This document shows, in pieces, positions 2,118 through 61,033 of a stretch of DNA of 64,000 nt. The stretch's first letter is position 1, and each line of letters begins with the position of its first letter. The notes beneath the pieces were generated by a model. It did no database searches and was not told the origin of the DNA. It saw only the letters and a program-made list of their open reading frames with translations. This DNA comes from Candidatus Kaiserbacteria bacterium. Its GTDB lineage: Bacteria > Patescibacteriota > Minisyncoccia > Phycocordibacterales > UBA2100. The position numbers were made by a program, and so were the translations under genes. The stretch spans positions 439,072 to 503,071 of the forward strand of contig CP066682.1 of NCBI GenBank assembly GCA_016432285.1, given 5' to 3'.

Positions 2118-2375
2118 ATGGTTAGAAAAGCGAATCCTGCATTGCTGAAGCCGATGAATCTTTCGGCCGATCTCGAAGCTGTCGTGGGCAAGGGGCCGAT
2201 GTCTCGCGGAGAAGTGGTCAAGAAGATCTGGGAGTACATCAAGAAGAACAACCTCCAGAACCCCCAGAACAAGCGCAACATCATGGCCGACGCCAAGCTG
2301 AAGCCTCTTTTCGGAGGCAAGGGCGAAGTCTCGATGTTCGAGATGACGAAGCTCGTTTCCGGGCACCTCAGCTAA
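2118..2375 (+). CDS. SWIB/MDM2 domain protein
   Basis: 85 aa. Motifs KKIWEYIKKNNLQNPQNKRNI and SMFEMTKLVSGHL match bacterial SWIB-domain proteins. Terminator downstream. Confidence 0.7.
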   Translation: MVRKANPALLKPMNLSADLEAVVGKGPMSRGEVVKKIWEYIKKNNLQNPQNKRNIMADAKLKPLFGGKGEVSMFEMTKLVSGHLS

Positions 2376-2392
2376 GCACTCAATCTGTTTTT

Positions 2393-2430
2393 GAAGCCAA
2401 AAGCCGCCCCAGAGGGCGGCTTTTGGCTTC
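2393..2430 (+). terminator. terminator hairpin GAAGCCAAAAGCCGCCC-cagag-GGGCGGCTTTTGGCTTC
   Basis: 17-bp perfect inverted repeat right after the SWIB gene stop. Confidence 0.6.
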
Positions 2431-2467
2431 ACTCTCTCTTCAAGAGCGATTGTGCTAGAGTTGCCGA

Positions 2468-2977
2468 ATGAAAAAAATAGCTCTGTTCGCCCTTTTGGGG
2501 ATCTTCCTCGTGCCCCTCACCGCATCCGCGCAGTACTGGGGGTACAACGGATACAACGCCAACACCAATTCGAATTACAACTACAACGCCAACTACAACT
2601 ACAACGGCAACAACGGCTACAGCAACCCGATGTACCAGCAGATGTACTGGTGCGGCAGCTACTATTCCTACAGCCCGTGCTATTCCTACAGCTCCTACAA
2701 TTACTCTCCCTACTCGTACGGCTACGGCAGTGGGTATGGAAATATGTACGCCGGGGCGACGTACGCATACCCGAGCTACTCGTACTCGTATCCGCAAAGC
2801 TATTCATATCCGCAGAGTTATTCGTATCCGTACAGCTCTGGCTATCCGAGCTACGGCTACCAAAACTACTCGTACCAGAACGATCAATATTGCTACTCGG
2901 GATACGGATGCTATCCATTTGCCGTCGACGATCCGCATCAGTGGGTGTACGACCAGTGGACAGGCACCTGGTATTAA
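2468..2977 (+). CDS. secreted low-complexity Tyr/Ser/Asn/Gly-rich protein
   Basis: Signal peptide (MKKIALFALLGIFLVPLTASA). The mature part is ~30% Tyr with SYSYPQ / NYNYN repeats. Coding-strand GC3 bias is consistent with a real gene. Confidence 0.55.
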   Translation: MKKIALFALLGIFLVPLTASAQYWGYNGYNANTNSNYNYNANYNYNGNNGYSNPMYQQMYWCGSYYSYSPCYSYSSYNYSPYSYGYGSGYGNMYAGATYAYPSYSYSYPQSYSYPQSYSYPYSSGYPSYGYQNYSYQNDQYCYSGYGCYPFAVDDPHQWVYDQWTGTWY

Positions 2978-3135
2978 CGGCTGCCGATAACCCCCAATCT
3001 GCTGCGTAGCGGAGCCTGCGCGTCTTGCATCTCGGGGATTCTCGGCAGCCTTGATGTGTTGACGGCGCAGGATTCTCAATGTCGCACTTCTTCTCCACAT
3101 GCTCTCAATAAGCGCTTTGCTATACTGCGGGCATC

Positions 3136-5610
3136 ATGGCGGCGCGAAAGAGCCGGATTGCAAAAAGCAACCGCACCCGCACGCCCTCCCGCTACGTGAT
3201 CCCCATGGAAGAGGCGGGGATGGATGATGTCGCGCTCGTCGGCGGCAAGAATGCATCCCTCGGCGAGATGCTCCAGGCGCTCACCTCCAAAGGCATCCGC
3301 GTGCCGAGCGGATTCGTGGTAACGGCGGAAGCGTACCGATTTTTCATCGAGGAAGCGGGGCTCGCGAATTTTATCCGCGAGGCGCTCGAAGCCTTGGAGC
3401 ACGGCGATTTGCGACAGCTCGAGAGCGTAAGCGCCGAGGTGCGCGCCCGCATCAAGAGCGCCGCGATGCCAAAAGCGCTCGAGCAGGAAATACGCGCTGC
3501 CTACAGTTCGATGGAAAAAAAATACGGCAGAAATATCGACGTGGCCATTCGCTCGAGCGCGACCGCCGAAGATCTTCCCGACGCGAGCTTCGCGGGAGAG
3601 CACGACACGTACCTCGGCGTTCGGGGCGACAAGGATGTGCTCCGGTCGGTGAAGTCGTGCTTCGCCTCGCTCTTTACCGCCCGCGCGATCAACTACCGCA
3701 TCGACAAGCACTTCGACCACTTTTCGGTTGCGCTCTCGGTGGCGATCCAGCGTATGGTGGCGACCGAAAGCGGCGCCTCGGGCGTCATGTTTACGATCGA
3801 CACCGAGACGGGCTTTCGCGATCTTGTCCTAATCAACGGCTCATGGGGTCTCGGCGAGATGGTCGTCCAGGGGAAGGTGGTTCCCGACGAATTCTTAGTG
3901 GCGAAGCGAATGATCGGCGCAGCTCCCAACCCCTTGATCAGCAAACGGCTCGGAAGCAAGCACGAAAAAATGATTTACACGCAAAAGGGAAGCGTGGGTC
4001 CGACGGAAATCGTGAAAACGTCGCCTGCGGATCGCGCGAGGTTTGTGCTCACCGACAAACAAGCGCTTCAGCTCGCGGCGTGGGGCAAAACGATCGAGGA
4101 GCACTACACCAAAAAGCGTAAGACCTACTCGCCCATGGACATCGAGTGGGGACTCGACGGCAAAACAGGTCAGCTTTTCATTCTCCAGGCGCGGCCCGAG
4201 ACGGTGCAGGTCGGGAAAGACAGAAGCAAGATCAAAGAGTACATCCGCAAGGAAGACGGCGAGGTGCTCGCGAAGGGGCTTTCGGTCGGCAACAAGATCG
4301 TGAGCGGCGTGGCGCGCGTGATCAAGAGCGTCGAAGACATGGAGGATTTGCAGCCCGGAGAGATCCTCATCACCGAAATGACCGACCCCGACTGGGAGCC
4401 GATCATGAAAAAGGCCGGCGCGATCGTTACCGACAAAGGCGGCCGCACCTCGCACGCTGCGATCGTCAGCCGCGAGCTCGGTCTTACCGCCATCGTGGGC
4501 GCCGAGACAGTTACGAAGCACATCAAGACGGGCCAGATGATTACCGTCGATACGACCTCCGCCGAGGGGCAGATCTTCAAGGGTGCGCTGCGATTCGAGG
4601 TGCGCGAGCACAGCGTCGCCGAGATTCCGGCCACCAAGACGAAAATGACCATGAACCTCGCCACCCCGGACACCGCGTTCGAAAAATCGTTTCTCCCGAA
4701 TAGCGGCGTCGGGCTCGCTCGGGAGGAATTTATCATCGCGGCGTCCGTCGGCGTACACCCCCTCGCACTCTTGCACTACAAAGAGCTCGATCCGCACCTC
4801 CAGCGTAAGATCGACGAGCGCACGCGCGGCTGGACCAATCGCAAGGAGTACTACATCGACAACCTCGCGTACGGCATCGCGAAGATCGCGACCGCATTTT
4901 ATCCGAAGCAGGTGATCGTGCGCTTCTCCGACTTTAAGAGCAACGAGTACCGCTCGCTTCTCGGAGGAGATCGCTTCGAGCCGCACGAAGAAAATCCAAT
5001 GCTCGGCTGGCGCGGCGCTGCCCGCTACTACGATCCGAAATTTAAGGAGGCCTTCGCCCTGGAGTGCGCGGCGATGCGGAAGGTGAGGGAGGAGATGGGG
5101 CTTACGAACGTGGTGCCCATGGTGCCCTTCTGCCGCACGCTTGAGGAGGGGGAGAAGGTGCTCGCGGCCATGAGCGAAGCCGGGCTCTATCCGCGGCTCC
5201 TCGCGAAGAGCGCCGCGCAGAAAAAGACGGCAACGCCTGTGATCGTGATGTGCGAGATACCCTCCAACGCGATTCTCGCCGATCAGTTTCTCGATATTTT
5301 CGATGGCATGTCGATCGGCTCCAACGATCTTACGCAGCTCACACTCGGACTCGACCGCGACTCGGGCATCGTCAATCGCGTGGCCGACGAGAACGACCCG
5401 GCGGTGAAAAAGCTGATCGCCGACGTAATCAAGATCTGCACGCGCCGCAAAAAATACGTCGGCATTTGCGGGCAGGCGCCCTCCGACCATCCCGAGTTTG
5501 CGAAGTTCCTCGTGGAGGAGGGGATCGAGAGCATGTCGCTCAATCCGGATTCGATCATCAAGACCACGGTCGCGGTCGCCGCGGTGGAAAAGCGCCTGCG
5601 GCGCAAATAG
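3136..5610 (+). CDS. ppsA: phosphoenolpyruvate synthase (pyruvate, water dikinase)
   Basis: GGKNASLGEM PEP-utilizer N-terminal motif. Phosphohistidine region GGRTSHAAIVSRELG. C-terminal PEP-binding TIM barrel. Alternative start at 3205 (MEEAGMDD) is possible, but TATACT sits 9 nt before the 3136 ATG. Confidence 0.85.
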   Translation: MAARKSRIAKSNRTRTPSRYVIPMEEAGMDDVALVGGKNASLGEMLQALTSKGIRVPSGFVVTAEAYRFFIEEAGLANFIREALEALEHGDLRQLESVSAEVRARIKSAAMPKALEQEIRAAYSSMEKKYGRNIDVAIRSSATAEDLPDASFAGEHDTYLGVRGDKDVLRSVKSCFASLFTARAINYRIDKHFDHFSVALSVAIQRMVATESGASGVMFTIDTETGFRDLVLINGSWGLGEMVVQGKVVPDEFLVAKRMIGAAPNPLISKRLGSKHEKMIYTQKGSVGPTEIVKTSPADRARFVLTDKQALQLAAWGKTIEEHYTKKRKTYSPMDIEWGLDGKTGQLFILQARPETVQVGKDRSKIKEYIRKEDGEVLAKGLSVGNKIVSGVARVIKSVEDMEDLQPGEILITEMTDPDWEPIMKKAGAIVTDKGGRTSHAAIVSRELGLTAIVGAETVTKHIKTGQMITVDTTSAEGQIFKGALRFEVREHSVAEIPATKTKMTMNLATPDTAFEKSFLPNSGVGLAREEFIIAASVGVHPLALLHYKELDPHLQRKIDERTRGWTNRKEYYIDNLAYGIAKIATAFYPKQVIVRFSDFKSNEYRSLLGGDRFEPHEENPMLGWRGAARYYDPKFKEAFALECAAMRKVREEMGLTNVVPMVPFCRTLEEGEKVLAAMSEAGLYPRLLAKSAAQKKTATPVIVMCEIPSNAILADQFLDIFDGMSIGSNDLTQLTLGLDRDSGIVNRVADENDPAVKKLIADVIKICTRRKKYVGICGQAPSDHPEFAKFLVEEGIESMSLNPDSIIKTTVAVAAVEKRLRRK

Positions 5611-6824: not shown

Positions 6825-6960
6825 CCCCGTGAGATAAATCCGCTCTTCCTTTGCGGGCGTTCTGTGCCACCCGATCTCACGGGGCTTACCCCGTGAGATA
6901 AATCCGTTTCTCCTTTGCGGGTGTTCTGTGCCGCCTGATCTCACGGGGCCTACCCCCGTG
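6825..6960. repeat. tandem direct repeat, ~65-bp unit x 2.1, each unit containing palindrome CCCCGTGAGAT...ATCTCACGGGG
   Basis: Units at 6825-6889 and 6890-6953 are ~90% identical. A third unit begins at 6953. Located between divergent starts at 6795 (minus strand) and 6994 (plus strand). Confidence 0.8.
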
Positions 6961-6993
6961 GCGCTTCCCAAAGGGTGCGATACAATCATCTGT

Positions 6994-8133
6994 ATGATTC
7001 ATAGCAAGAGTGTGAAGGCCGGTCTCGTTCTCGCAGCGCTTCTCCTCCCGCTCCTCGCGACGGCTGCCGAGTGGAAGACGGGTGAGCAGTTCTCTCTGGG
7101 GAGCAGCGAACGGTACACCGACGACCTCTACATCGCGGGCGGCAACGTAACGACGGCGGCCACGATCAACGGCGACCTTGCGGCGATGGGCGGCAACGTG
7201 CTCGTCAATGGCCCCGTCTCGGGCGATATTTTCGCGGCAGGCGGCAGCGTTACGATCCTCGGATCGGTGGGCGATGACCTCCGGGTCGCGGGTGGCAACA
7301 TCACGATCTCGAGTGCCGTTCGCGGCGATCTCGTCGTCGGCGGCGGCCAGGTCAATATCTCCGGTGAAGGAATCGGTGGCGATGTGCTCGCCGGTACTGG
7401 TGTTCTTCGAATCGACGCGCCCGTGGGGGGAGATGTGGTAATCGGCGGTGGCGAAGTCGTCATCAACGCACCGGTCGGCGGCAACGTGCGATTCGCTGGA
7501 GAAAATCTCACGCTCGGCTCCGGGGCGGTCATTGAGGGCAATCTCTCGTACGCGAGCCCGAAGGAAGCGAAGCTCGAAGAGGGCGCTGTCGTCCGCGGAG
7601 AAACGAGCTACGAACAAACGCAAGACGTGCGCGGCATCGCCGAGAAGGGCTTTCTCGCCTTCATCACGCTCGCCACCATCGGCAAGTTTCTCTCGATCCT
7701 CGCGAGCGCGCTCATCATCGGGCTCGCTTTCAGCAAATACTCCGTGGCACTCGTGGAGGGCGCGATCGCGCGCCCGTGGTTTGAGATGGGTCGCGGGCTC
7801 GTCACGCTGATCCTGCTGCCGGTCTTTTCGATCATTCTCCTCGTGACGGTGCTCGGCATACCGCTCGGGCTCTTGGGCCTCACCGCATTCGTGGCCGCGA
7901 TCATCTTTTCCTCGCTCGTCGCTCCAATCATTCTCGGAAGCCTCTCGTACAAGTGGATCACGCGCACCGGCTACCTCGAAGTGTCGTGGAAGACGATCCT
8001 GCTCGGCGTCGTGCTCTACACGCTGATCGGCCTCGTGCCCTTCATCGGCCCGCTTGTGAAATTCGCGCTCGTGCTGCTGGCGCTTGGCGTAACAGCCAAG
8101 ATCAAATGGGACATCGCCAAATCCTGGCAATAA
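6994..8133 (+). CDS. bactofilin-like (polymer-forming beta-helix repeat) protein with C-terminal multi-TM domain
   Basis: Signal/TM at N-terminus. ~12 degenerate repeats of xGGNVxIxGxVxGDL type. Four hydrophobic helices at C-terminus. TACAAT 7 nt upstream of the ATG. Confidence 0.5.
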   Translation: MIHSKSVKAGLVLAALLLPLLATAAEWKTGEQFSLGSSERYTDDLYIAGGNVTTAATINGDLAAMGGNVLVNGPVSGDIFAAGGSVTILGSVGDDLRVAGGNITISSAVRGDLVVGGGQVNISGEGIGGDVLAGTGVLRIDAPVGGDVVIGGGEVVINAPVGGNVRFAGENLTLGSGAVIEGNLSYASPKEAKLEEGAVVRGETSYEQTQDVRGIAEKGFLAFITLATIGKFLSILASALIIGLAFSKYSVALVEGAIARPWFEMGRGLVTLILLPVFSIILLVTVLGIPLGLLGLTAFVAAIIFSSLVAPIILGSLSYKWITRTGYLEVSWKTILLGVVLYTLIGLVPFIGPLVKFALVLLALGVTAKIKWDIAKSWQ

Positions 8134-16427: not shown

Positions 16428-16574
16428 CCCCATCGGGACGAGCGTCGGTCAGGGCCGAGCTCGTCCCGCGGGGCTGGCGGACGCCGTGTCGGGCGATTAC
16501 GTCCGCGACCGCTAGAGAGACTACTTCGAGCACGCGTTTTGTCAAACACGCCCGGGCGGCTACAATACGCGGGC

Positions 16575-17591
16575 ATGGCATTTTCTTTCGCGCCCAAATT
16601 GGGGATCGATCTCGGCACGACAACGGTTCTCGTTTTTGTGCCGGGCCGCGGCATCGTCCTCAATGAGCCATCGGTCGTCGCTGTCTCGCAGACCGACAAC
16701 AAGATCCTTGCAGTGGGCAACGAAGCCAAGGAGATGGTCGGCCGCACGCCCGACGAAATCATCGCGTACCGGCCCATGAAAGACGGCGTGATCGCCGATT
16801 ACCGCGTGACGGAGGCGATGCTTCGCTACTACATCCGCAAATCGCTCGGCAAGTGGAATCTTTTCAAGCCGGAAGTCATGGTCTCGGTGCCGGCGGGCGT
16901 TACCTCGACCGAACGGCGCGCCGTGGTGGAAGCGGCCACAAAAGCCGGAGCGCGCGAAGCGTACGTGGTGAAGGAGCCGATTCTCGCCGCGATCGGCGCC
17001 GGGATTCCAATCCACGAGGCGCGCGGACACATGATTGTCGACATCGGGGGCGGCACCAGCGACGTGGCCGTGATCTCTCTCGGCGGCATCGTCGCCTCGA
17101 CCTCGGTGAAGTGCGCGGGCAACGCCATGGACCATGCGATCGCCGACTATTTGAAAAAGAATTTCAATCTCGCGGTCGGCGACAAGATGGCCGAACAAAT
17201 CAAGATCCACATCGGCTCCGCCGTCCCCATGGATGAGGAGCTCACGATGACGGTGAAGGGGCGCGATTACCTCACTGGGCTGCCGCGCTCAATCGAGCTT
17301 TCGACTAATGAGGTGGTCCGCGCGATAGGCAGGGAGCTGCGGACGATGGTGAATGCGATGAAAGACGTCTTGCAAGACACACCGCCCGAGCTCGCGGCCG
17401 ACATCATCGACAACGGCATCATTATGACGGGCGGTTCCTCGCTCCTGCGAAATCTCGCCGAGCTCGTCTTTCGGCGCACCGGCGTGAAAGCGCGGGTGGC
17501 CAAAGACGCGCCTTTTTGCGTGGCCAAAGGCACGGGCGAGGCTCTGAAGCACCTCGAAGCATACAAAAAAGCGATCATCACGAAGCGCTGA
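16575..17591 (+). CDS. mreB: rod shape-determining protein MreB (paralog 1)
   Basis: Actin-fold phosphate-1 motif GIDLGTTT. DIGGGTSD. IIMTGGSSLL. TACAAT 8 nt upstream of the ATG at 16575. Confidence 0.85.
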   Translation: MAFSFAPKLGIDLGTTTVLVFVPGRGIVLNEPSVVAVSQTDNKILAVGNEAKEMVGRTPDEIIAYRPMKDGVIADYRVTEAMLRYYIRKSLGKWNLFKPEVMVSVPAGVTSTERRAVVEAATKAGAREAYVVKEPILAAIGAGIPIHEARGHMIVDIGGGTSDVAVISLGGIVASTSVKCAGNAMDHAIADYLKKNFNLAVGDKMAEQIKIHIGSAVPMDEELTMTVKGRDYLTGLPRSIELSTNEVVRAIGRELRTMVNAMKDVLQDTPPELAADIIDNGIIMTGGSSLLRNLAELVFRRTGVKARVAKDAPFCVAKGTGEALKHLEAYKKAIITKR

Positions 17592-21849: not shown

Positions 21850-23130
21850 ATGCGCCAATCGCAGCTCTTCACCAAGACACGCCGCGAGGCACCGAAAGAC
21901 GAAGTGGCGAAAAATGCCCAGCTCCTGATTCGCGGAGGGTTCATCAGTAAAGAGATGGCAGGAGTATACAATTTTCTACCACTCGGTCTTCGAGTGTTCG
22001 AAAAGATCGTGAACGTCATACGAGAGGAGATGAATGCTATCGGTGGTCAAGAGATTTTAATGAGCAGTTTGCAAAGGCGCGAGCTCTGGGAAAAGACCAA
22101 TCGCTGGAACGACGAGGTTGTTGATAATTGGTTTAAGACAGAACTGAAAGATGGCAGCATCGTAGGATTGGGCTTCACTCACGAAGAACCGATTACGAAT
22201 ATGATGGAGCAATTCATTCCGTCATATCAAAACCTCCCCACTTACGTTTACCAGTTTCAAACTAAATTCCGAAATGAGGAGCGGGCAAAAAACGGCCTTC
22301 TGAGAACACGGGAATTCGTGATGAAGGATCTCTATTCTTTTTCTAAAAATGAAACGGAACACGTTGATTTTTACGAAAAGGCCAAAGATGCATACAAGCG
22401 CATTTTTAATCGTCTTGGAATCGGGAATAACACGTATCTTACGTTCGCTTCCGGTGGGTCATTTAGTAAATTCAGTCACGAATTCCAAACGATTTGTGAT
22501 GCAGGAGAAGACGTTATTTATATTCACAAAGATGATTACGGTAAGGGCTTAGAAATGCACCCACACCATGCCGCAATCAATAAGGAAATCTATACGGAAG
22601 ATCTGAAAAAGGATCTTGGACTCGAAGGAAGTTTTATTGAAAAGAAGGTAGTCGAGGTTGGGAATATCTTTACGCTAGGAACTCGCTTCCCAGAAGCGCT
22701 CCTCTGCCGATTTAAGGACGAGCAAGGTAAAGAGAATTACCCGTTCATGGGCTCCTACGGCATCGGCCCGGCGCGGCTGATGGGGACGATCGCCGAAGTG
22801 CTCTCGGACGACCGCGGGCTCGTGTGGCCCGCGGAGATCGCGCCCTTTGCGGTGCATCTCATCGCGATCACGGGCGGCAACGCCGACGTGGCGGCCGAAG
22901 CCGAGCGCTACTTCGAGATGCTGAAGGAGAATCACATCGAAGTGCTCTTCGACGACCGCGACGTGCGGGCGGGCGAGAAATTTGCCGATTCGGATCTTTT
23001 GGGAATCCCGACGAGGCTCGTCGTTTCGGAAAAGACGATGGCCGAGGGCGGTGTGGAAATGGTGAACCGCAAGGACAAGGCGGCGACGATCGTGGCCGAG
23101 AGCGACGTAATCGGACGCCTTTTGAAATAA
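21850..23130 (+). CDS. proS: proline--tRNA ligase (short, archaeal/eukaryote-like class II form)
   Basis: Class II motifs (FRNEER..GLLRTREF; GSYGIG). Anticodon-binding C-terminal domain. ORF extends upstream to 21628, but MRQSQLFTKT at 21850 matches homolog N-termini and the promoter position. Confidence 0.85.
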   Translation: MRQSQLFTKTRREAPKDEVAKNAQLLIRGGFISKEMAGVYNFLPLGLRVFEKIVNVIREEMNAIGGQEILMSSLQRRELWEKTNRWNDEVVDNWFKTELKDGSIVGLGFTHEEPITNMMEQFIPSYQNLPTYVYQFQTKFRNEERAKNGLLRTREFVMKDLYSFSKNETEHVDFYEKAKDAYKRIFNRLGIGNNTYLTFASGGSFSKFSHEFQTICDAGEDVIYIHKDDYGKGLEMHPHHAAINKEIYTEDLKKDLGLEGSFIEKKVVEVGNIFTLGTRFPEALLCRFKDEQGKENYPFMGSYGIGPARLMGTIAEVLSDDRGLVWPAEIAPFAVHLIAITGGNADVAAEAERYFEMLKENHIEVLFDDRDVRAGEKFADSDLLGIPTRLVVSEKTMAEGGVEMVNRKDKAATIVAESDVIGRLLK

Positions 23131-23132
23131 GT

Positions 23133-24203
23133 ATGCGGCGCTTTCGGGAATGGAAAGAAAGAATCCTGGGGTGGTTCTCCAACGACATCGGTATCGATCT
23201 CGGCACCGCCAACACGCTCGTGTACGTCAAAGGTCGCGGCATTGTCATCAATGAGCCGTCGATCGTGGCGATGAATCAAAAGACTGGGCAGGTAGTGGCG
23301 GTGGGGCAGCAAGCCAAGGACATGCTTGGCCGCACGCCGGCGCACATCGTGGCCGTGCAGCCGGTGATCGACGGCGTAATTTCGGACTTTGAAGTTACCT
23401 CCGAGATGCTCTCGTATCTCATCAACAAGGCGCAGGAAGGACACACCAAACTCCTGGGGCCGCGCGTAGCGATCGGCGTGCCTTCGGGCATCACTTCTGT
23501 GGAAGTGCGGGCGGTGCGTGACGCCGCGCGCGCCGCAGGCGCGCGCGAGGTGCACATCATCGAAGAGCCGCTCGCAGCGGCGATCGGCATCGAGCTCCCG
23601 GTGCACGAGCCGCGCGGACACATGATAATCGACATCGGCGGCGGCACCACCGACGTGGGCGTGGTCTCGCTCGGCGGCCTCGTCAACTCGCGCAACATCC
23701 GCATCGCGGGCGATCGGTTCAACGCCGACATCGTCGCTCACACGCGCAACGAATTTAAAATCCTCATCGGCGAAAAAACCTCGGAAGAGATCAAAATGCA
23801 GCTCGCCAACGTGGCTCCCGGCCGCGACCGACTCGAGACCTTGGCGCGTGGCCGCGATTTGGTGACTGGTCTCCCACGCGAGATCGTCGTATCGGATCAG
23901 GACGTCCGCAACGCGATCGGACACTCGGTGGAGGAGCTCGTGGAATCAATCAAGGAAGTGCTCGAAACCACGCCGCCCGAGCTTTTGGCCGACATCATGC
24001 AGCGCGGCATCTATCTCGCGGGCGGCGGGGCGCTGATCCGCGGTCTTCCGGAATTTCTGACCGCGGCGCTCGGCGTGCCGGTCGTGGTGGCGCCGGATCC
24101 GCTCACAGCCGTCGTACGCGGCACGAGCGTTATCCTCGAGGATCTCAATCTGTATCGCGAAGCGCTCCTGAAAAATGATGACGAATTTGTGCCGACAGAG
24201 TAA
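23133..24203 (+). CDS. mreB: rod shape-determining protein MreB (paralog 2)
   Basis: GIDLGTANT, DIGGGTTD, IYLAGGGALI. Start at MRRFREW immediately after the proS stop. Confidence 0.8.
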   Translation: MRRFREWKERILGWFSNDIGIDLGTANTLVYVKGRGIVINEPSIVAMNQKTGQVVAVGQQAKDMLGRTPAHIVAVQPVIDGVISDFEVTSEMLSYLINKAQEGHTKLLGPRVAIGVPSGITSVEVRAVRDAARAAGAREVHIIEEPLAAAIGIELPVHEPRGHMIIDIGGGTTDVGVVSLGGLVNSRNIRIAGDRFNADIVAHTRNEFKILIGEKTSEEIKMQLANVAPGRDRLETLARGRDLVTGLPREIVVSDQDVRNAIGHSVEELVESIKEVLETTPPELLADIMQRGIYLAGGGALIRGLPEFLTAALGVPVVVAPDPLTAVVRGTSVILEDLNLYREALLKNDDEFVPTE

Positions 24204-24239: not shown

Positions 24240-25049
24240 ATGAAGAAGTCCAACTTTTCTTTCTCGCACGCGAGTAAAACGCGGGGCACTCGCAAGCGCC
24301 TCTTTGCCGCCACAGTGCTTGTGCTCCTCATTCTCTTCGCGGACCTTCTTTCCGGCGGCGCCATCCGGGCGATGGTGCGCGGCGCGTACGTGCGCGTGTG
24401 GAGCGCCGGCTCTGGCGTTGTGAGCGGGATCTTTGAGAGCGGCTTCTTTTCGACAAGGCGGGCCCTGGAGCGTGAGAACGGGAGTCTCCGCGAACGGCTC
24501 TCGGAGCTTGAGACGAAGAGCGCCAGCTTTTCGGTGCTCCGGCAGGAAAACGATTCGCTCCGCTCACTCCTCAAGGTAGCCGAGCGCGCGCCCGGGATTA
24601 CCGCTTCGATCGTTTCGTCGGTGCGCAGCTCTCCGTACGGCACCTTCCTCATCGGTGCGGGATCCGAAGATGGTGTGGCTCCTGGAAGCTTGGTGCTCGC
24701 CGCGGATTCCGCGGGCGACGGATTCGTGCTTGGTGTTGTGCAAGAGGCAGACGCGCGCACTGCGCTCGTGAAGGAGCTCTTTGGGCCCGGTATCAGCACC
24801 GAGGCGAGCGTGCGCGGCGCGAGCGTGGTGGTGGAAGGGCAAGGAGGCGGCAACGCGAGGGCTGAGGCGCCTCGCAATCTCCCGGTCGTCGCAGGAGACC
24901 CGGTCACGGCGCCTTCGCTCGGCGGCTATCCAATCGGGGTTGTCGGAGCCGTCAAGACGGAAGCTTCGAGCGCAGAGAGCGATGTGTACATCGGCCTTCC
25001 CGTATCGCTCGCGGGGCTCTCGTTCGTGTATGTCGTTGCTCAATACTAA
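24240..25049 (+). CDS. mreC: rod shape-determining protein MreC
   Basis: N-terminal TM. Coiled-coil LRERLSELE...LRQENDSLRSLL. C-terminal beta domain. Position after mreB. Confidence 0.75.
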   Translation: MKKSNFSFSHASKTRGTRKRLFAATVLVLLILFADLLSGGAIRAMVRGAYVRVWSAGSGVVSGIFESGFFSTRRALERENGSLRERLSELETKSASFSVLRQENDSLRSLLKVAERAPGITASIVSSVRSSPYGTFLIGAGSEDGVAPGSLVLAADSAGDGFVLGVVQEADARTALVKELFGPGISTEASVRGASVVVEGQGGGNARAEAPRNLPVVAGDPVTAPSLGGYPIGVVGAVKTEASSAESDVYIGLPVSLAGLSFVYVVAQY

Positions 25050-25302
25050 AACACGCGTCGTACTCGCGACGCTCGCAGTCCTGAGCGCGGTCTTTCTTTC
25101 GCCGTGGCTCACGCTGATTCTCATGGGGCTCTTGGCCTTTGGATTCCGCGCATGGGAAGTACTGCTCATCGGGCTTTCGGTGGACCTCTTGTGGCTGCCC
25201 GCCGGCGATCTCTTAGATCCGCTTCCGATCGGCACTCTGATCGCGCTCGCGCTCGTGTGGGGCCTCGAGCCGCTTCGTTCTCAATACTTGATGTCGCAGT
25301 GA
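25030..25302 (+). CDS. mreD: MreD-like small membrane protein
   Basis: 90 aa, three hydrophobic helices. Overlaps the mreC end. Precedes PBP2. Confidence 0.5.
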   Translation: MSLLNTKTRVVLATLAVLSAVFLSPWLTLILMGLLAFGFRAWEVLLIGLSVDLLWLPAGDLLDPLPIGTLIALALVWGLEPLRSQYLMSQ

Positions 25303-25306
25303 TATA

Positions 25307-27010
25307 GTGGCTGGCATGTGGGGAAAGCGGAGAAGCGTGCGAGAAATTCAGCCGGACGAAATTTTTCTCGATTCCACCAATCTTCCCGGTCGCAACGATC
25401 CGCAGTTTGAGGGCAGGGTCGTGCGTCCCGTATCGAGCCGCGCGATGTTTGGCGTGGGTGCGGTCTTCGCGATTGCTATCCTCTTTTTTGCGGCGCGAGC
25501 CTTTGAGCTCTCGGTGGTGCACGGCGAAGATTACGCCGAGGTCTCGCAAGAAAATCGGCTCGATCGATCGATCGTCTTTTCCACGCGCGGCGTGATCTAC
25601 GACCGCACCGGCAAAGAGCTCGCCTGGAACGAATCCGCCGCGCTCTCAGAGGCCTCGACGACCCCATACGCGTTGCGGCGCTACGCCGATCTTCCGGGTC
25701 TCTCGCACGTGCTTGGATTCGTACGCTATCCGAAGGCCGACGCGAGCGGCAACTGGTGGCGCACCGAGTACAGCGGCGTGGCAGGCTCCGAGCAGGCGTT
25801 TAACGATGCTCTTGCTGGGCTAAACGGCAGCAGAATGGTGGAGATCGACGCGCTCGGCAACGTGGAGATGCAAAACATCATCGAGCCGCCCGTGCCTGGT
25901 CGCGACATCACGCTTTCGATCGATGCGGAGATACAAAGCAAACTTTTTTCGGCACTCTCGACTCAGGCGCGGGCCCAAGGGTTCGAGGGAGGTGCGGCGG
26001 TGATTATGGACGTGCGCACGGGCGAGCTTTTGGCGCTCACGAGCTTTCCGGAATACGACAACGCCGGCTTTACCGAGGGCGACGCCGCAGCGATCGATGC
26101 GGCGCACGGGAGCGACAACTCGCCGCTCTTGGACCGAGCCACGAGCGGTCTCTACGCGCCGGGATCGATCGTGAAGCCGATCTTTGCCGCCGCCGCGCTA
26201 AACGAAGGCATCATCAGCCCCGAAAAGAAGATACAGTCGACCGGCGCGATTACGATTCCAAATCCGTATAATCCCGACAATCCCTCGATCTTCCGCGACT
26301 GGACCGTGCACGGATGGATCGACATGCGCGAGGCGATCGCCGTATCGTCCGACGAATACTTCTACACCATCGGCGGCGGCTTCGGCTCGCAGGTGGGGCT
26401 CGGGATCGCGCGCCTCGACGAGTATGCTCGCGACTTCGGTCTCGGCACCTCCACCGGCTTTACGATCTTCGGCGAAGAAGTCGGCGTCATACCGACGCCG
26501 GAGTGGAAGGAGAAGGTCTTCGGCGAGGACGATCCGTGGCGCATCGGCAACACGTATCACACGGCCATCGGGCAGTTCGGCTTTCAGATCACGCCCCTCC
26601 AAGCCGTGCGCTTCGTGGCTGCTATCGGCAACGGCGGCAAGCTCCTCACGCCGCAGATACTCGCTGGCGCAAAACCGGAGTACACGAGCGTCGGGGTCCC
26701 TGACGAATACCTCCAGATCGTGCGCGAAGGCATGCGCCTCGCCGTCACCTCTACCCGATCCGACGCGACCGTCAAATCACTGAGCATTCCGGGGATACAA
26801 ATCGCTGCCAAAACGGGAACGGCGCAGATCGGCACGCAGAATCAGTACATGAATTCCTGGTCGATCGGATTCTGGCCCGCTGATAATCCGCACTACGCGT
26901 ATGCAGTGGTGCTCGAAAAAGCACGCGCGGGCACGCTCTCCGGCGCCGCGCCCGGCTTCCGGCCGTTTGTGGAGTGGCTGATTGCCAATCGTCCGGAATA
27001 CATCGAATGA
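25307..27010 (+). CDS. mrdA: penicillin-binding protein 2 (elongasome transpeptidase)
   Basis: N-terminal TM. Dimerisation domain. Transpeptidase motifs SxxK (GSIVK), SxN (SSD), KTG (KTGTAQ). TATAGT 7 nt upstream. Confidence 0.8.
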   Translation: MAGMWGKRRSVREIQPDEIFLDSTNLPGRNDPQFEGRVVRPVSSRAMFGVGAVFAIAILFFAARAFELSVVHGEDYAEVSQENRLDRSIVFSTRGVIYDRTGKELAWNESAALSEASTTPYALRRYADLPGLSHVLGFVRYPKADASGNWWRTEYSGVAGSEQAFNDALAGLNGSRMVEIDALGNVEMQNIIEPPVPGRDITLSIDAEIQSKLFSALSTQARAQGFEGGAAVIMDVRTGELLALTSFPEYDNAGFTEGDAAAIDAAHGSDNSPLLDRATSGLYAPGSIVKPIFAAAALNEGIISPEKKIQSTGAITIPNPYNPDNPSIFRDWTVHGWIDMREAIAVSSDEYFYTIGGGFGSQVGLGIARLDEYARDFGLGTSTGFTIFGEEVGVIPTPEWKEKVFGEDDPWRIGNTYHTAIGQFGFQITPLQAVRFVAAIGNGGKLLTPQILAGAKPEYTSVGVPDEYLQIVREGMRLAVTSTRSDATVKSLSIPGIQIAAKTGTAQIGTQNQYMNSWSIGFWPADNPHYAYAVVLEKARAGTLSGAAPGFRPFVEWLIANRPEYIE

Positions 27011-56715: not shown

Positions 56716-56856
56716 CTTTTTCGGACCCGTCCTTTTGCTACCTACACCCATCTCGCGCGGCCGCGCACGATAGGTGTATTCGGCCATCGTAGAACACGCC
56801 CGAAGTTTTCAACACTGGGCGGCGGGAGAGCGTCATAAGAGGCTACAATGGAGCCA

Positions 56857-58752
56857 ATGCCGAGCAAAGGCGCGTGGCTCTTGTTGTTCGCACTACTTGT
56901 GGGGTCGCTCCCCCAGGTTGTTGCTGCAAAAGTCGAGCCCATTTGCGCGGGCGGAAAAACGCAGCTTCCGCAGCAGGAAGCTCGCTCCATCCCCATGACG
57001 CCTCAGACACCGGCGCAGGTGAAGCAGTATCTGAAAGGTATTTCGTGCGCGAACGCCTGTTACGACGTGCAGGTAGTCTTTAGCGTGAGCGGGATGCGGC
57101 TCGGCGTGCAGTTGCAGACCATCAACAGGTGCGCCCCTGCTTCCATGAGCAATCCCACCGGGCTCGACCCCGCCTTGAGCGCGCCGCCGCGAGGTTGTGG
57201 AGCGGGGCAGCGCAAACCCGAAGGCACGGTCATCAAGCCCGACCGCACGAAAGAGGGACCAAAGAGCCGTTGCGACGGCAAACTGACGGACGGTCTTGAT
57301 GAGGCGGTCGACAAACTCTCCCAAAAGATGCTGAGCGGGCAGAGACTCACCGCCGATGATCTGAAAGACGCGTTTGCCACCGTCGCCGCGGCAGAGACGG
57401 TAACCTCGCCCATTTCCGGTGGTTTTAGTCAGGCGCTCTCGAGTGCGCTGCAAGACAAACTCAACATCTCGGCGTCGGAAGCCGATCGGATCGCCAATAC
57501 CAACGCCGATAAGGCAAGAGCGATGCTGAGCGCCTACGCCAACGGCGATGCCACTAAGCTGAAGGAGCTTTCCGAAAGCGAGGGTATCGCGCTCAACAAC
57601 GACGTGCTCACAAATTCCGAACGGTTGACCGCCGATCAGAAATCGGAAGCGCTGCAACAGTTGCGGGATATTGATGCAATCCAGCGCGATCAGACGACGG
57701 GATTTGGGGATGTACCCTCGAAGCCGACAGACATGGATCTGTGGAAATATGGCATCTGCAAAAAGGAAAGCAGTTGTGATAACCCGCGATCAAACCCTTA
57801 TCAGAAGATCGGGCCACGCATCACCGACCCGAGATCGAGATATTTCGGCGACCATGCTTATGGAAAGTACCAAATGATGGGTAAGAATCTTCCGGAATGG
57901 TCTCAGCAAGTGCTCGGGCGCAACGTGTCCATTTCTGAATTTATGGCGAACCCGGATTTACAGGAAAAGATATTTGAGGGAAAGTTTGGGCCCCTCGTGG
58001 AGAAATACGGCTCGGCTGTCAAAGCCGCCGTTGTGTGGTTCTCGGGCGAGGGCGGTCTCAGGAACCTCGGTCGTGCAGATCAGCTCGGTACGACGGCCGC
58101 GAGATATGCCGCAGACTTTGCGGCAGCAATTGGTGGTGGTGGCATTCCGGGCGGCTATCTCGCCAACCTGACGAAGCCCGGGCTCTCTGGTCTATTGGGC
58201 GGTGGATTTGGTGCAGGGCTTGGTGGCGGGCTCGGCGGGGAATCGGGATCGCCGTTCAATCTCGGGTCCCTTCTTTCCGGGCTCACCAAAGGATTCGGGG
58301 GCTCCGGTGGTTCGCGGCCACCAAGCGGCGGTGGAGGCTACGTGGGTGGAGGTGCTCCGGCACAAAGTGGGGGCGGCTACGTGGCGCCGAGCGGCGGGGC
58401 ACCCGTCTCGGGGCAGACCTATCCGGTAACGCCAGTTTCGCAACAAATCCAACCGGTCGTAACGACCCCGCAAATCAAACCGGTCGCCACCATCCTCGTG
58501 CAGCCGAAAGAGGTGCAACGAGGATCATCGATCACTGTCTCGTGGTCGAGCGTCGGCATGAATTCCAGCATTCCGTGTCAGGTGTTCCAGAAGACTCCGG
58601 ATGTAACGACCGTCATCGGCGTTGGCAACGAGGGCACGAAGCGAGTTACCACAAATACCGCAGACCCGCTCGGCACGTGGGAGTTTCGCGTGGAGTGCTC
58701 CGCGCTCGTCGGCGGCTCAATACAGCAAACTTCGAGCGTGACGGTCAAATAA
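56857..58752 (+). CDS. large secreted protein: Cys-rich N-region, lytic-transglycosylase/lysozyme-like central domain, Gly-rich linker, C-terminal beta (Ig-like) domain
   Basis: Signal peptide. ES...YGKYQMMG...SEFMANPDLQEKIF...AAVVWFSGEGG resembles the GH23 SLT motif order. ~120-aa G-rich low-complexity stretch. TACAAT overlaps the first in-frame ATG, so the start was set at the second ATG. Confidence 0.55.
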   Translation: MPSKGAWLLLFALLVGSLPQVVAAKVEPICAGGKTQLPQQEARSIPMTPQTPAQVKQYLKGISCANACYDVQVVFSVSGMRLGVQLQTINRCAPASMSNPTGLDPALSAPPRGCGAGQRKPEGTVIKPDRTKEGPKSRCDGKLTDGLDEAVDKLSQKMLSGQRLTADDLKDAFATVAAAETVTSPISGGFSQALSSALQDKLNISASEADRIANTNADKARAMLSAYANGDATKLKELSESEGIALNNDVLTNSERLTADQKSEALQQLRDIDAIQRDQTTGFGDVPSKPTDMDLWKYGICKKESSCDNPRSNPYQKIGPRITDPRSRYFGDHAYGKYQMMGKNLPEWSQQVLGRNVSISEFMANPDLQEKIFEGKFGPLVEKYGSAVKAAVVWFSGEGGLRNLGRADQLGTTAARYAADFAAAIGGGGIPGGYLANLTKPGLSGLLGGGFGAGLGGGLGGESGSPFNLGSLLSGLTKGFGGSGGSRPPSGGGGYVGGGAPAQSGGGYVAPSGGAPVSGQTYPVTPVSQQIQPVVTTPQIKPVATILVQPKEVQRGSSITVSWSSVGMNSSIPCQVFQKTPDVTTVIGVGNEGTKRVTTNTADPLGTWEFRVECSALVGGSIQQTSSVTVK

Positions 58753-59627: not shown

Positions 59628-60221
59628 ATGGCTGCCAAGAAAATTTTTCTGCTACTCGGACATCCGGATAAGAGCGGCATGTGCGGCGCGCTCGCCGACA
59701 CGTACGAGAGCGCGGCGAAAGCGGCGGGGCACATGGTGCAGCGCCTCAATATCGGGGAGATGCAATTCGATCCGATCCTCCGGAGGGGGTACCGGGCGCG
59801 ACAAGATTTGGAGCCGGATCTCGCGAAGTTTCAGGAGCTCGTGTACTGGGCCGACCATGTGGTGATCGTGTACCCCGTGTGGTGGGTCGGGATGCCCGCC
59901 ATCCTCAAAGGGCTCTTTGATCGCGCGTGGCTTCCCGGCTCCGCTTTTCGCTACATCAAAACCCATGCCGGCACGCGTACGATCTTTTGGCACCGGCTCT
60001 TTCGTGGCAAATCGGCGCGTATCATCATGACGAGCGGCACGCATCCGATCCTCGTGCGCTTTCTGCCGGGCAACGTCAACGCGCAGCTGAAGTGGGGGAT
60101 TCTGTGGTTCGCGGGTTTTCGCGTATCCACCGTGTGGTTTGGGCCGGCCGAAAACGTGCCGGAGCATCGCAAAGCGCGTTGGCTTCAGAAGGTGGCGATG
60201 CTCGGCAAACGCGGGAAGTAG
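59628..60221 (+). CDS. NAD(P)H dehydrogenase (quinone)/flavodoxin-like FMN reductase family
   Basis: LLLGHPDKSGMCGALADTYESAA N-terminus and ADHVVIVYPVWWVGMPAILKG are typical of the Flavodoxin_2/NQO-like fold. Confidence 0.65.
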   Translation: MAAKKIFLLLGHPDKSGMCGALADTYESAAKAAGHMVQRLNIGEMQFDPILRRGYRARQDLEPDLAKFQELVYWADHVVIVYPVWWVGMPAILKGLFDRAWLPGSAFRYIKTHAGTRTIFWHRLFRGKSARIIMTSGTHPILVRFLPGNVNAQLKWGILWFAGFRVSTVWFGPAENVPEHRKARWLQKVAMLGKRGK

Positions 60222-60269
60222 CGTTCTGCGCTTCTTGACAGGGAAGCCGGATCGCTGCAAAATCGCGGC

Positions 60270-60995
60270 ATGAACAGACTCACTACAAGATTCGCCCCGG
60301 TCCTCATCATCTTGGCGTTCGCCATTGCGGCTGTTTTGACCTTCGCCACGCCCGCCTTCGCGGACGGCCACTGGTGCGGATCCACATGGTCTTCCTTCCC
60401 GTGCACTTCCTCCGATTGGGGCAACCAGGGGTATCAGGGCTACCAGTGGGGTGCCGGAACGTATCCTGGATATTACGGCTCCACCTACCCGACCTATCCG
60501 AACAATTATTACGGCTACAACCAGTATCCATACAGCTATCAATACCCGTACGGCTACCAGTATCAGTATGGCAACTCGTACTACCAGTACGGCTACAACC
60601 GCCCGACCTGTACGATTTCGTACTCTGCGCAGAACACGTACGGCAATTACTACGGCAACGGCTACTATGGCAACAGCTACTCCGGCAACTCCGGCAACTA
60701 CGGCAATTACGGTTACTACAATCCGGCGCAGCCGATCACGCTCACGTGGACTTCGCAGAACGCCTCCTCGGCGAGCATCACGGGCGTCGGGTCGGTGCAA
60801 ACGAGCGGCTCAATGACGGTCTACCCGGCGGGCAACACGACCTACACGATGACCGTGCAGGGCGCAGGCGGCAGCAACTCCTGCCAGACGGCGTACTATC
60901 CGACACTCCAGTACCAGAGCTATCCGTATGGTTACGGTTACGGGCAGAACTACGGCTATCCGTACTACGGCAACAATTACAACTACGGGTACTAA
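60270..60995 (+). CDS. secreted Tyr/Gly/Asn/Gln-rich low-complexity protein with central Thr/Ser-rich beta segment
   Basis: Signal peptide (AFAIAAVLTFATPAFA). >25% Tyr in YGY/YQY/NYY repeats. Cys near both ends. Paralogous in composition to 2468-2977. Confidence 0.55.
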   Translation: MNRLTTRFAPVLIILAFAIAAVLTFATPAFADGHWCGSTWSSFPCTSSDWGNQGYQGYQWGAGTYPGYYGSTYPTYPNNYYGYNQYPYSYQYPYGYQYQYGNSYYQYGYNRPTCTISYSAQNTYGNYYGNGYYGNSYSGNSGNYGNYGYYNPAQPITLTWTSQNASSASITGVGSVQTSGSMTVYPAGNTTYTMTVQGAGGSNSCQTAYYPTLQYQSYPYGYGYGQNYGYPYYGNNYNYGY

Positions 60996-61033
60996 ATAGA
61001 TAAAGAGCGCGCTCTCTGCTATGATTCGCGCTC

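Follow-up and report, generated by a model that had tools for sequence, protein, structure and literature searches.

What does a short, tyrosine-rich open reading frame (ORF) contribute to the biology of a member of the Patescibacteria? This question is raised by ORF 60270-60995, which is located on a chromosomal segment of a Candidatus Kaiserbacteria bacterium (contig CP066682.1; 64,000 nucleotides, 58% G+C; referred to below as the window). Patescibacteria account for a large share of bacterial diversity and, to our knowledge, their outer-surface proteins are almost entirely uncharacterised. Our preferred answer, to which we assign a probability of about 0.5, is that the product is a small protein of the envelope or an extracellular matrix, secreted via Sec and devoid of an anchor, with uncharged aromatic arms that would engage, as multivalent stickers, in self-association or adhesion. 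We infer both the secretion and this role from the features described below.

ORF 60270-60995 is a real protein-coding gene. Its start is the first possible start codon of the open frame. The G+C content at third codon positions (GC3) is 0.80 in frame versus 0.40 and 0.52 in the other two frames; the reference value for two clear housekeeping genes of the same window is 0.77. The coding status follows from this contrast, from the periods of the DNA tandem repeats within the ORF (9, 12, 15, and 18 nt, every one a multiple of 3), and from the existence of homologues with a conserved architecture. The alternative, namely that high-GC DNA with a simple repeat unrelated to any frame is open by chance, could refer to the short tandem repeats themselves and to a 382-aa open frame on the opposite strand (59652..60800). 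The latter also spans the neighbouring flavodoxin-like gene and is a shadow frame of high-GC DNA. The GC3 contrast and the repeat periods speak against this alternative, as do the confidently predicted, non-repetitive core of the protein and dozens of protein-level homologues with different arm sequences. It was rejected, its probability being close to nil. The original prediction, made from the sequence of this locus, had named two findings that would undermine it, namely a repeat independent of frame and the absence of Tyr-rich secreted ORFs in related genomes. Neither was encountered, and homologues of this kind were retrieved from other genomes both by a single-sequence search and by an N-terminal profile (11 and 35 proteins, respectively). 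The sequence blocks quoted in that prediction (YQGYQWG, YPYGYQYQYGNSYYQYGYN, GNYGNYGYYN, and PITLTWTSQNASSASITGVGSVQTSGSMTVYPAGNTTYTMTVQGAGG) are all present in the translation.

The encoded protein begins with a predicted signal peptide, composed of a basic n-region (MNRLTTR), a 19-residue hydrophobic stretch, and an AFA/D cleavage motif. Residues 9-25 were modelled as a helix by AlphaFold2, which was run with a 12-sequence family alignment. This agrees with the signal peptide proposed earlier, and the protein would be exported via the Sec system and cleaved after Ala31. Equivalent AxA/Q..TTPYWC junctions occur in the homologues, in which the conserved module that follows starts 2-7 residues past the AxA-type site. 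The possibility that the protein is a lipoprotein was rejected because a lipobox, [LVI][ASTVI][GAS]C, is absent from the cleavage site (TPAFA/DGHWC, with G-H-W preceding the first Cys). The module at aa 32-50 holds the sequence WCGSTWSSFPC, in which W35, C36, S41, S42, P44, and C45 are invariant (alignment A3). A low-confidence hairpin was modelled at aa 34-41, and C36 and C45 presumably form a disulfide.

Two low-complexity arms enclose the remaining part of the protein. Arm 1 contains 22 Tyr in 61 residues (36%) and one charged residue, while arm 2 contains 14 Tyr in 34 residues (41%), has no charge, and terminates the protein with GNNYNYGY, nothing that could serve as an anchor being encoded after it. 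Tyr, Gly, Asn, Gln, Ser, Thr, and Pro together make up 94-95% of each arm (95% in arm 1), with Asn and Gln contributing about 21-23% and proline accounting for 5 of the 61 and 3 of the 34 residues. The predicted local distance difference test (pLDDT) score is below 50 in the arm 1 region (aa 49-105) and at aa 220-241 of arm 2; the arms are probably disordered, as judged from the model. In total, 49 of the 210 residues of the mature protein are Tyr (23%), as compared to a background of 2.39%, calculated over 38 further window genes (P about 2e-33, binomial). The only charged residues of the mature protein are D32, D49, and R111, and it contains four Cys (positions 36, 45, 114, and 205). Spacing of Tyr in the family is not random: among the homologues, the i+2 distance is enriched (z = +4.3), while i+1 and i+3 are avoided (z = -6.6 and -4.4). 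With this preference, one face of an extended arm chain would be lined with Tyr.

The single-sequence search, performed against 5.8 billion proteins, yielded 11 homologues of 172-305 aa, all unannotated. Most of them share the following order of elements: a signal peptide, YWCGSxWSSxPC, a Tyr/Asn/Gln arm, PAPTCTITY, an aromatic loop, an immunoglobulin (Ig)-like core with the consensus ITLSWSSSNATSAYIxxVGTVxxxGSxxVYPxxxTTYTMTVxGPGGSNTCQT, and a Tyr/Gln arm. YWCGSxWSSxPC is missing in P0005 and P0008 and occurs as a variant in a few other homologues. Ten of the 11 proteins (alignment A1) end in Tyr or Trp, the exception being the membrane-anchored P0005. The overall Tyr content is 15-24%, that of Asn plus Gln 14-23%, and the number of charged residues does not exceed 13. 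The composition of the arms is kept among the homologues while their sequence and length are not, a pattern suggestive of selection acting on composition, known also from other low-complexity interaction domains. The closest relative, P0199, shares 39% identity over residues 11-230 (E 3e-24) and differs by a sole large gap of 18 residues, which is located in the loop between strands A and B of the Ig-like domain. Since this gap coincides with the 9/15/18-nt repeats at 60648-60719, within the arrays detected by Tandem Repeats Finder (TRF) at 60639-60719, part of the A-B loop is a recent, lineage-specific slippage expansion of about 18 aa.

The core of the protein has an Ig-like fold according to the structure model, which comprises two sheets and seven strands with pLDDT values of 85-97 and resembles solved Ig-like domains. 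The earlier guess of a small Ig-like or beta-sandwich domain is thereby supported, with corrections to its extent. A segment of normal complexity does exist, but it spans about 55 aa (153-207) rather than about 70. The block GNYGNYGYYN is not a flank; it is part of an insertion within the domain, the fold of which starts some 40 residues earlier, at strand A (mean pLDDT 94 for residues 111-120; P112 and C114 invariant among the homologues). Strand A (112-120) is parted from strands B-G (153-207) by this 32-aa Tyr/Asn/Gly loop, which lacks any charged residue and has pLDDT values below 50 at aa 125-145. Shorter aromatic inserts occupy the same position in the homologues. Within the core, W160, A165, S167, I170, G174, G180, V184, P186, Y192, V196, G198, G201, and C205 are invariant. 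Cys114 and Cys205, likewise invariant among the homologues, presumably form a second disulfide. The arrangement of the four Cys in two invariant pairs, and the presence of the C114/C205 pair in all Patescibacteria copies examined versus its absence from the Ig-like copies of Acidobacteriota-type proteins L016-L018, fit an extracytoplasmic staple. The structural neighbours of the model include S-layer, PKD, FN3, and adhesin-type Ig domains as well as carbohydrate-binding modules (Z <=6.1).

Curated databases offered little for this domain. Scans of Pfam, NCBIfam, and PHROGs gave sub-threshold Ig-like matches at most: Big_2 (PF02368) of Pfam scored 14.2 bits at residues 154-203 (E 0.043), below its gathering cut-off of 22.8, and NCBIfam gave no match for the protein. 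A family-profile search of PDB sequences also remained without a match. The domain does possess the signature of an uncurated Ig-like repeat of Patescibacteria, 'TLSWSSSNATSA', i.e., W in strand B, NA[ST]SA, G[ST]xxVxP, and YT[LM]TVxGxGG, bracketed by Cys; these positions are invariant or nearly so in alignment A1. When 1.84 billion representatives were searched exhaustively by HMMER using the full-length profile, 7,513 proteins were retrieved at E <=1e-3. Almost all proteins at the top of this list are giant ones with 4-47 domain copies, and only one short full-length relative was found among the best 150 of the 7,513. Thus, the Ig-like domain is common, unlike the short architecture, which is rare. 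In scans of metagenomes and species-representative genomes, the Cys-bracketed domain was located in Paceibacterota, Saccharibacteria-labelled, Kaiserbacteria, and Moraniibacteria metagenome-assembled genomes; the domain also occurs in some proteins of Acidobacteriota, Ignavibacteriota, and Bacteroidota. A phage origin was considered and rejected, since viral contigs carry only a generic Ig-like domain without the full architecture. No second copy of the domain was detected in the window with a local hidden Markov model (HMM).

Membrane-anchored relatives provide the strongest evidence that the product of ORF 60270-60995 belongs to the cell-surface repertoire. In P0005, L014:3505-4461, and L015:6855-7748, the arm-Ig-arm cassette is followed by an anchor, which is composed of an IPYTG-type motif (consensus SLxQIPYTG), a transmembrane (TM) helix, and a basic tail. 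Because such anchored versions of the cassette exist, the role in attachment or envelope structure suggested in the original prediction is plausible. More generally, many Ig-like proteins of Patescibacteria start with a signal peptide and short repeats of acidic/aromatic character (GYYDSYGSNL, GYTDYG, YSQGNY). One or more Ig-like domains come next, and behind them a conserved VSLTQIPYTG(L/F)D(L/F)GPxGN sequence, a TM helix, and a tail, which is either basic or a longer cytoplasmic one and often ends in PRIVIxR. No part of this plan is represented by a model in Pfam or NCBIfam. Pairwise identity of the window domain to units of the anchored proteins is 46-59%; it is closest to units with an aromatic A-B insert, the best match being that in L006 (54% over 101 columns, E 6e-28).

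The motif of these relatives was also noted in its own right. VSLTQ-IPYTG-(L/F)D(L/F)GPxGNxxYW followed by a TM helix and a basic tail was seen in L005, L006, L007, L011, L012, L014, L015, L025, L026, and L032 as well as in P0103, P0114, and P0137; long tails often end in PRIVIxR(G/N/A). It looks like a lineage-specific sorting signal of the LPXTG type. P0137 displayed a sub-threshold match to Gram_pos_anchor of Pfam (E 0.005), and the literature search with the string IPYTG returned no relevant paper. ORF 60270-60995 itself has neither a PYTG nor an LPxTG motif. Another gene of the window (914-1969, +) encodes a secreted, internally duplicated protein of 351 aa that is rich in Thr, Ala, and Gly and matches nothing in Pfam. 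This protein ends with GVPSTGEG, a hydrophobic helix, and KRALR, i.e., with an LPXTG-like sorting signal, so that the organism probably uses sortase-type anchoring.

The Cys loop assigns the protein to a further group. A profile of the N-terminal half, from which the Ig domain was left out, retrieved 35 small Tyr-rich proteins of 92-207 aa, three of which are named as originating from Candidatus Paceibacterota or Candidatus Parcubacteria bacterium. Behind the signal peptide, they share a module with the consensus TTPYWCGSYWSSxPC. ORF 60270-60995 has all hallmarks of this PYWCG-module group, namely a signal peptide, W-C-G-x-x-W/Y-S-x-x-P-C within a few residues of it, and a Tyr-rich segment. 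The same N-terminal module is combined with at least five different C-terminal units. Besides the Ig-like domain, an IPT/TIG domain was identified in P0189 (Pfam E 2e-9), and six proteins (P0193, P0195, P0201, P0203, P0206, and P0207) have a small unit bracketed by Cys, PCxPVSYDSRGxVVQTSCG, which precedes a His/Asp/Arg-rich tail. Others have different Cys-rich ends (P0194, P0198, and P0205) or the end CYSGYGCYPxxVxDPHQWxYDxWTGTWY. The composition of the His/Asp/Arg-rich tail, as exemplified by DRDHDHRDRNWDHH, suggests metal binding. On one metagenome contig, two PYWCG-module genes are located about 300 bp apart.

The last of these ends is typical of a second family, which is represented in the window by the gene at 2468-2977. 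The window contains exactly two Tyr-rich ORFs, and exactly these two carry W-C-G-S-x-[WY]-S-x-x-P-C. The chance expectation for the motif is about 1e-8 to 1e-7 given the composition, and it did not appear in any of 200,000 shuffles of either protein. Beyond the motif, the two proteins cannot be aligned. The AlphaFold2 model of the 2468-2977 product is disordered except for aa 132-169 (pLDDT 76-87), which correspond to the CYSGYGCYP...DPHQW..WTGTWY unit, and displays no fold in common with the product of ORF 60270-60995. The original prediction had united both genes in one small family of secreted Tyr-rich proteins. The shared Cys-loop module and the composition bear this out; the folded modules differ, and it is more accurate to speak of two families that belong to one modular group. 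The surroundings of the 2468-type gene were also compared. The neighbourhood 2118-5610, with genes for SWIB, a PPDK-like enzyme, GSDH, and Carb_kinase, is conserved between the window and contigs L038-L040 and L130, although the gene position within it differs. The PPDK-like enzyme is 84-86% identical to the copies on L038-L040, which also carry a 2468-type gene; one of these metagenome contigs bears a scaffold name from a groundwater study. Along with the named homologues and a DUF5671 gene near ORF 60270-60995, this identity points, if indirectly, to a high-GC member of the Patescibacteria as the source of the window.

Coordinates of the features of both genes are given in Table 1. The promoter-like site upstream of ORF 60270-60995 ends 6 nt before the ATG, and no Shine-Dalgarno sequence was recognised before this codon; with this combination, the transcript may lack a leader. 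Another promoter-like site at 60997-61025, TAGATA-17-TATGAT with an extended TG, ends 8 nt before the start codon of the following gene, ychF (61034). Together, both sites hint that very short or absent 5' leaders are perhaps usual in this genome.

Table 1. Features of ORF 60270-60995 and the second Tyr-rich gene of the window (window positions; aa numbered from the initiator Met)
Feature	Position	Strand	Basis
Complete coding sequence, 241 aa + stop	60270..60995	+	ORF list, GC3, homologues
Promoter-like site TTGACA-17 nt-CAAAAT	60235..60263	+	10/12 consensus positions, consensus match only
Predicted Sec/signal peptidase I (SPI)-type signal peptide, aa 1-31 (MNRLTTR + hydrophobic core + TPAFA/D)	60270..60362	+	Read from sequence, AlphaFold2 helix
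Cys-loop module WCGSTWSSFPC, aa 35-45	60372..60404	+	Alignment A3, database profile, shuffles
Arm 1, aa 51-111, Tyr/Gly/Gln/Asn/Pro	60420..60602	+	Composition, AlphaFold2
Strand A of Ig-like domain, aa 112-120 PTCTISYSA, with Cys114	60603..60629	+	AlphaFold2 strand 113-120
Tyr/Asn/Gly-rich A-B loop insertion, aa 121-152 (32 aa)	60630..60725	+	AlphaFold2, TRF, alignment
Ig-like beta-sandwich core, aa 153-207, strands B-G, ends at Cys205	60726..60890	+	AlphaFold2, alignment
Arm 2, aa 208-241	60891..60992	+	Composition, AlphaFold2
Second Tyr-rich secreted gene, 169 aa	2468..2977	+	Cys-loop module WCGSYYSYSPC, aa 61-71, nt 2648-2680

ORF 60270-60995 is located among housekeeping genes. A flavodoxin-like gene of the quinone-reductase type immediately adjoins it upstream, and genes for YchF, a DUF5671 membrane protein, and a class I tRNA synthetase are located downstream. 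The other genes of the window include those for an F-type ATP synthase, penicillin-binding proteins (PBPs), a Mur ligase, two MreB proteins, MreC, GMP synthase, and seven tRNAs. The MreB paralogues are encoded at 16539-17591 and 22824-24203, the second with an N-terminal extension of about 115 aa, and are followed at 24240-27010 by MreC and a PBP2-type transpeptidase. Four of the tRNA genes (Val-CAC, Pro-CGG, Pro-GGG, and Ala-CGC) are clustered at 28222-28642, with both tRNA-Pro genes directly abutting. At 56848-58752 (+), 1.5 kb upstream of ORF 60270-60995, the window encodes a 634-aa secreted protein without a Pfam match; a linker rich in Gly (GGGLGGESGS...GGGGYVGGG) is present in it, and its C-terminal part, with ITVSWSSVGMNSSIPC, is weakly Ig-like (local HMM E 5.4).

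Comparison of the window with the contexts of P0010, P0004, P0008, and P0192 revealed no neighbour gene that is conserved across lineages. A pair of genes for DUF4342 and DUF8173 proteins lies downstream of the homologous (family-1) gene in L001 (9425-10808) and L134 (10597-11977; directly after it), and a DUF8173 homologue lies downstream in L051 (7602-8744). These three contigs are closely related, so that shared descent can explain the linkage; given its restriction to such contigs, it was not accepted as a functional link. DUF8173, a membrane protein, contains GGD(V/L) repeats similar to those of bactofilins. Its homologue in the window (6928-8133; 43-44% identical) is located about 4 kb from 2468-2977 rather than near 60270-60995. 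On L001, a Cu-oxidase gene (L001:3822-5057) precedes the family-1 gene by about 3 kb, and a 407-aa ORF at the matching position in L051 (L051:2255-3478) is a putative counterpart only. As the multicopper oxidase was confirmed only in L001, it was likewise not accepted as a functional link; its presence may bear on Tyr oxidation or be coincidental.

Taken together, these features can be accommodated in the following model. Cleavage of the signal peptide would release a 210-residue product with two small folded elements, the 11-residue Cys36-Cys45 loop and an Ig-like sandwich of the type repeated in Patescibacteria surface proteins, stapled by Cys114-Cys205. These elements would be joined and flanked by three near-uncharged Tyr/Gly/Asn/Gln segments, i.e., the two arms and the intradomain loop. 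The arms would be the working parts: flexible, multivalent, and with Tyr at alternate positions, they could bind each other, Tyr-rich parts of anchored paralogues, or polysaccharide and peptidoglycan surfaces by aromatic stacking and hydrogen bonds. The protein would thereby be retained in a surface coat or an adhesive matrix and contribute to its construction, with the Ig-like domain serving as a stable spacer or interaction knob and the Cys loop as a stable knob or docking piece.

A secreted, non-anchored matrix protein of this kind would be in line with a gene that forms its own transcription unit, as indicated by the promoter-like site directly upstream and by the lack of a neighbour gene conserved across lineages. 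Several observations weigh against the model. The same comparison of gene contexts provides no conserved partner gene that would back an envelope role, and neither a sortase motif nor an anchored paralogue of the protein was found in the 64-kb window. As there is no anchor, release into the medium is equally possible. Low pLDDT in the arms is no proof of disorder, and period-2 spacing of Tyr could mean beta folding or assembly. Finally, all database relatives are labelled 'hypothetical protein'.

Amyloid-like assembly, oxidative cross-linking of Tyr, and adhesion to host glycans are specific versions of the sticker idea that are not separable on present evidence, and each is less probable than the general reading. 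As a fibre subunit of the functional amyloid or prion type, for which curli and the Sup35-type prion domains of yeast offer a comparison, the protein would have Q/N/Y/G arms that form the cross-beta spines of extracellular fibres decorated by Ig-like domains. The Tyr and Asn+Gln contents of the arms, their single charged residue or none, the similar composition across the family, and the Tyr spacing, which is typical of beta strands, are all in keeping with such a fibre, and the PQGGYQQYN repeats of the Sup35 N-domain resemble the arms. Yet Pfam and NCBIfam revealed neither a Curlin repeat nor a match to any amyloid family, the window genes scanned include no csgB/E/F/G-like nucleator or secretion partners, the frequent proline disfavours long beta spines, and the arms are devoid of structure in the AlphaFold2 prediction, which renders a fibre subunit unlikely. 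The same degree of doubt applies to an adhesin of an episymbiont, whose Ig-like domain, Tyr loop, or both would bind a carbohydrate or cell-wall ligand by CH-pi stacking and bridge symbiont and host. Cultivated Patescibacteria are described as living attached to hosts (PMC11623550). The Tyr-rich insertion in the Ig-like loop, the conservation of an aromatic insert in this domain subtype, including anchored surface proteins, and the carbohydrate-binding modules and adhesins among the structural neighbours would fit this function. However, bridging by a protein without an anchor needs a second interaction, the variable sequence and length of the loop, including its recent 18-aa expansion, argue against a precise binding site, and the fold matches are generic.

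An oxidatively cross-linked coat protein, in which an oxidase would convert Tyr to dityrosine or to 3,4-dihydroxyphenylalanine (DOPA)/quinone and thus create an insoluble protective or adhesive layer, appears quite improbable. The extreme Tyr content of an uncharged, predicted secreted protein would suit it, as would the multicopper oxidase near the homologue in L001, with its putative counterpart in L051, and the flavodoxin-like gene, which adjoins the ORF in the window and is located about 3 kb away in L051. The oxidase, however, is limited to closely related contigs, being absent from the contexts of L002, L037, and L134 and from the set of about 40 ORFs of the window that were compared with Pfam; the flavodoxin-like gene is only weakly associated (32% identity, position variable), and sequence similarity to spore-coat or mussel proteins is lacking. 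Very little speaks for the precursor of a secreted antimicrobial peptide, similar to the Gly/Tyr-rich, uncharged class II bacteriocins. The protein is small, predicted to be secreted, rich in Gly, Tyr, and Asn, and has presumed disulfides, and its YYGNG (aa 128-132) recalls the pediocin box. This string, however, lies inside the window-specific slippage expansion, is absent from the homologues, and is not followed by Cys. The leader is of the Sec type, and the window genes scanned offer no immunity, transporter, or double-glycine leader context. The conserved parts, the Ig-like fold and the Cys loop, are unlike bacteriocin families, to which Pfam and NCBIfam gave no match. The bacteriocin reading was rejected on account of its motifs, as was membership in class IIa, which is defined by a YGNGVxC box, a double-glycine leader, and an immunity gene, only YYGNGYY being present. 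A bolder extension of the matrix-protein reading, and an unlikely one, would regard the PYWCG-module proteins as a toolkit, specific to Paceibacterota, for an extracellular glue or coat that assembles itself: the Cys loop would dock to the surface, and a matrix that fastens ultrasmall cells to hosts or surfaces would arise from condensation of the alternating-Tyr arms, either through beta assembly of the prion type or through oxidative coupling of Tyr.

The significance of the matrix-protein reading lies in a compact signature outside the curated families, namely a signal peptide, a TTPYWCGSYWSSxPC loop, and alternating-Tyr arms round swappable folded heads, which connects short soluble proteins with membrane-anchored surface proteins of the same cassette. 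If the arms do self-assemble or adhere, this small, expressible family would offer a tractable entry to coat building or host sticking, and aromatic 'sticker' domains of low complexity would thereby be exemplified in a bacterium and outside the cell. If they do not, it would be one more lineage-specific family of hypothetical proteins. No described relative was found in Pfam, NCBIfam, PDB, or the literature searched, and full-text searches on Tyr-rich or prion-like Patescibacteria proteins, surface proteins of the Candidate Phyla Radiation (CPR), and IPYTG yielded no account of the family.

Compared with known Ig-like surface domains of the Big/PKD type (Big_2, the PKD domains of archaeal S-layers, and the HPI S-layer of Deinococcus), the window domain falls below every Pfam cut-off, occurs singly, is presumably stapled by Cys, and has its first strand split off by a 32-residue Tyr loop. 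With the 'TLSWSSSNATSA' repeat proteins it shares the signature C-x-I ... TLSW-S-x-NA-[ST]-SA ... G-[ST]-x-x-V-x-P ... Y-T-[ML]-T-V-x-G-x-GG-x-x-x-C; unlike these, the window protein has one domain and neither an anchor motif nor a TM helix, and it carries the N-terminal PYWCG-type Cys loop, which is lacking in the large anchored proteins examined. Relatives of it resemble sortase-anchored LPXTG surface proteins in that PYTG, followed by a hydrophobic helix and then by basic residues, forms their C-terminus, whereas the window protein stops right after arm 2 without a sorting signal.

The arms correspond to Q/N/Y/G prion-like domains in their Tyr/Gly/Asn/Gln/Ser content, near-zero charge, conserved composition, and predicted disorder. 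Prion-like domains in the sense of PLAAC/PAPA are defined by a composition-based score over >=60 residues and, experimentally, by self-propagating aggregation; arm 1 comprises 61 residues, with the composition given above. The Sup35 N-domain and the low-complexity domain of FUS are intracellular and eukaryotic, and their Tyr content is seemingly below the 36-41% of the arms; the window protein, by contrast, is bacterial and predicted to be exported. Small exported proteins with 20-30% Tyr plus Gly and Asn, in which Tyr adheres or cross-links, are known from mussels (Mfp-3/5), Bacillus spores (CotC/CotU), and resilin. These are rich in Lys/Arg or Asp, while the window protein is practically uncharged, lacks sequence similarity to them, and has no consistently linked modifying enzyme. 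The likeness to prion-like and to Tyr-rich adhesive or coat proteins is treated here as a set of functional analogies. The newly recognised part is the small PYWCG-module group, which has no counterpart among curated families or in the literature searched; the known kind to which the protein would belong is that of exported proteins combining an Ig-like domain with low-complexity segments, as a member of a very large, uncurated Ig repeat family.

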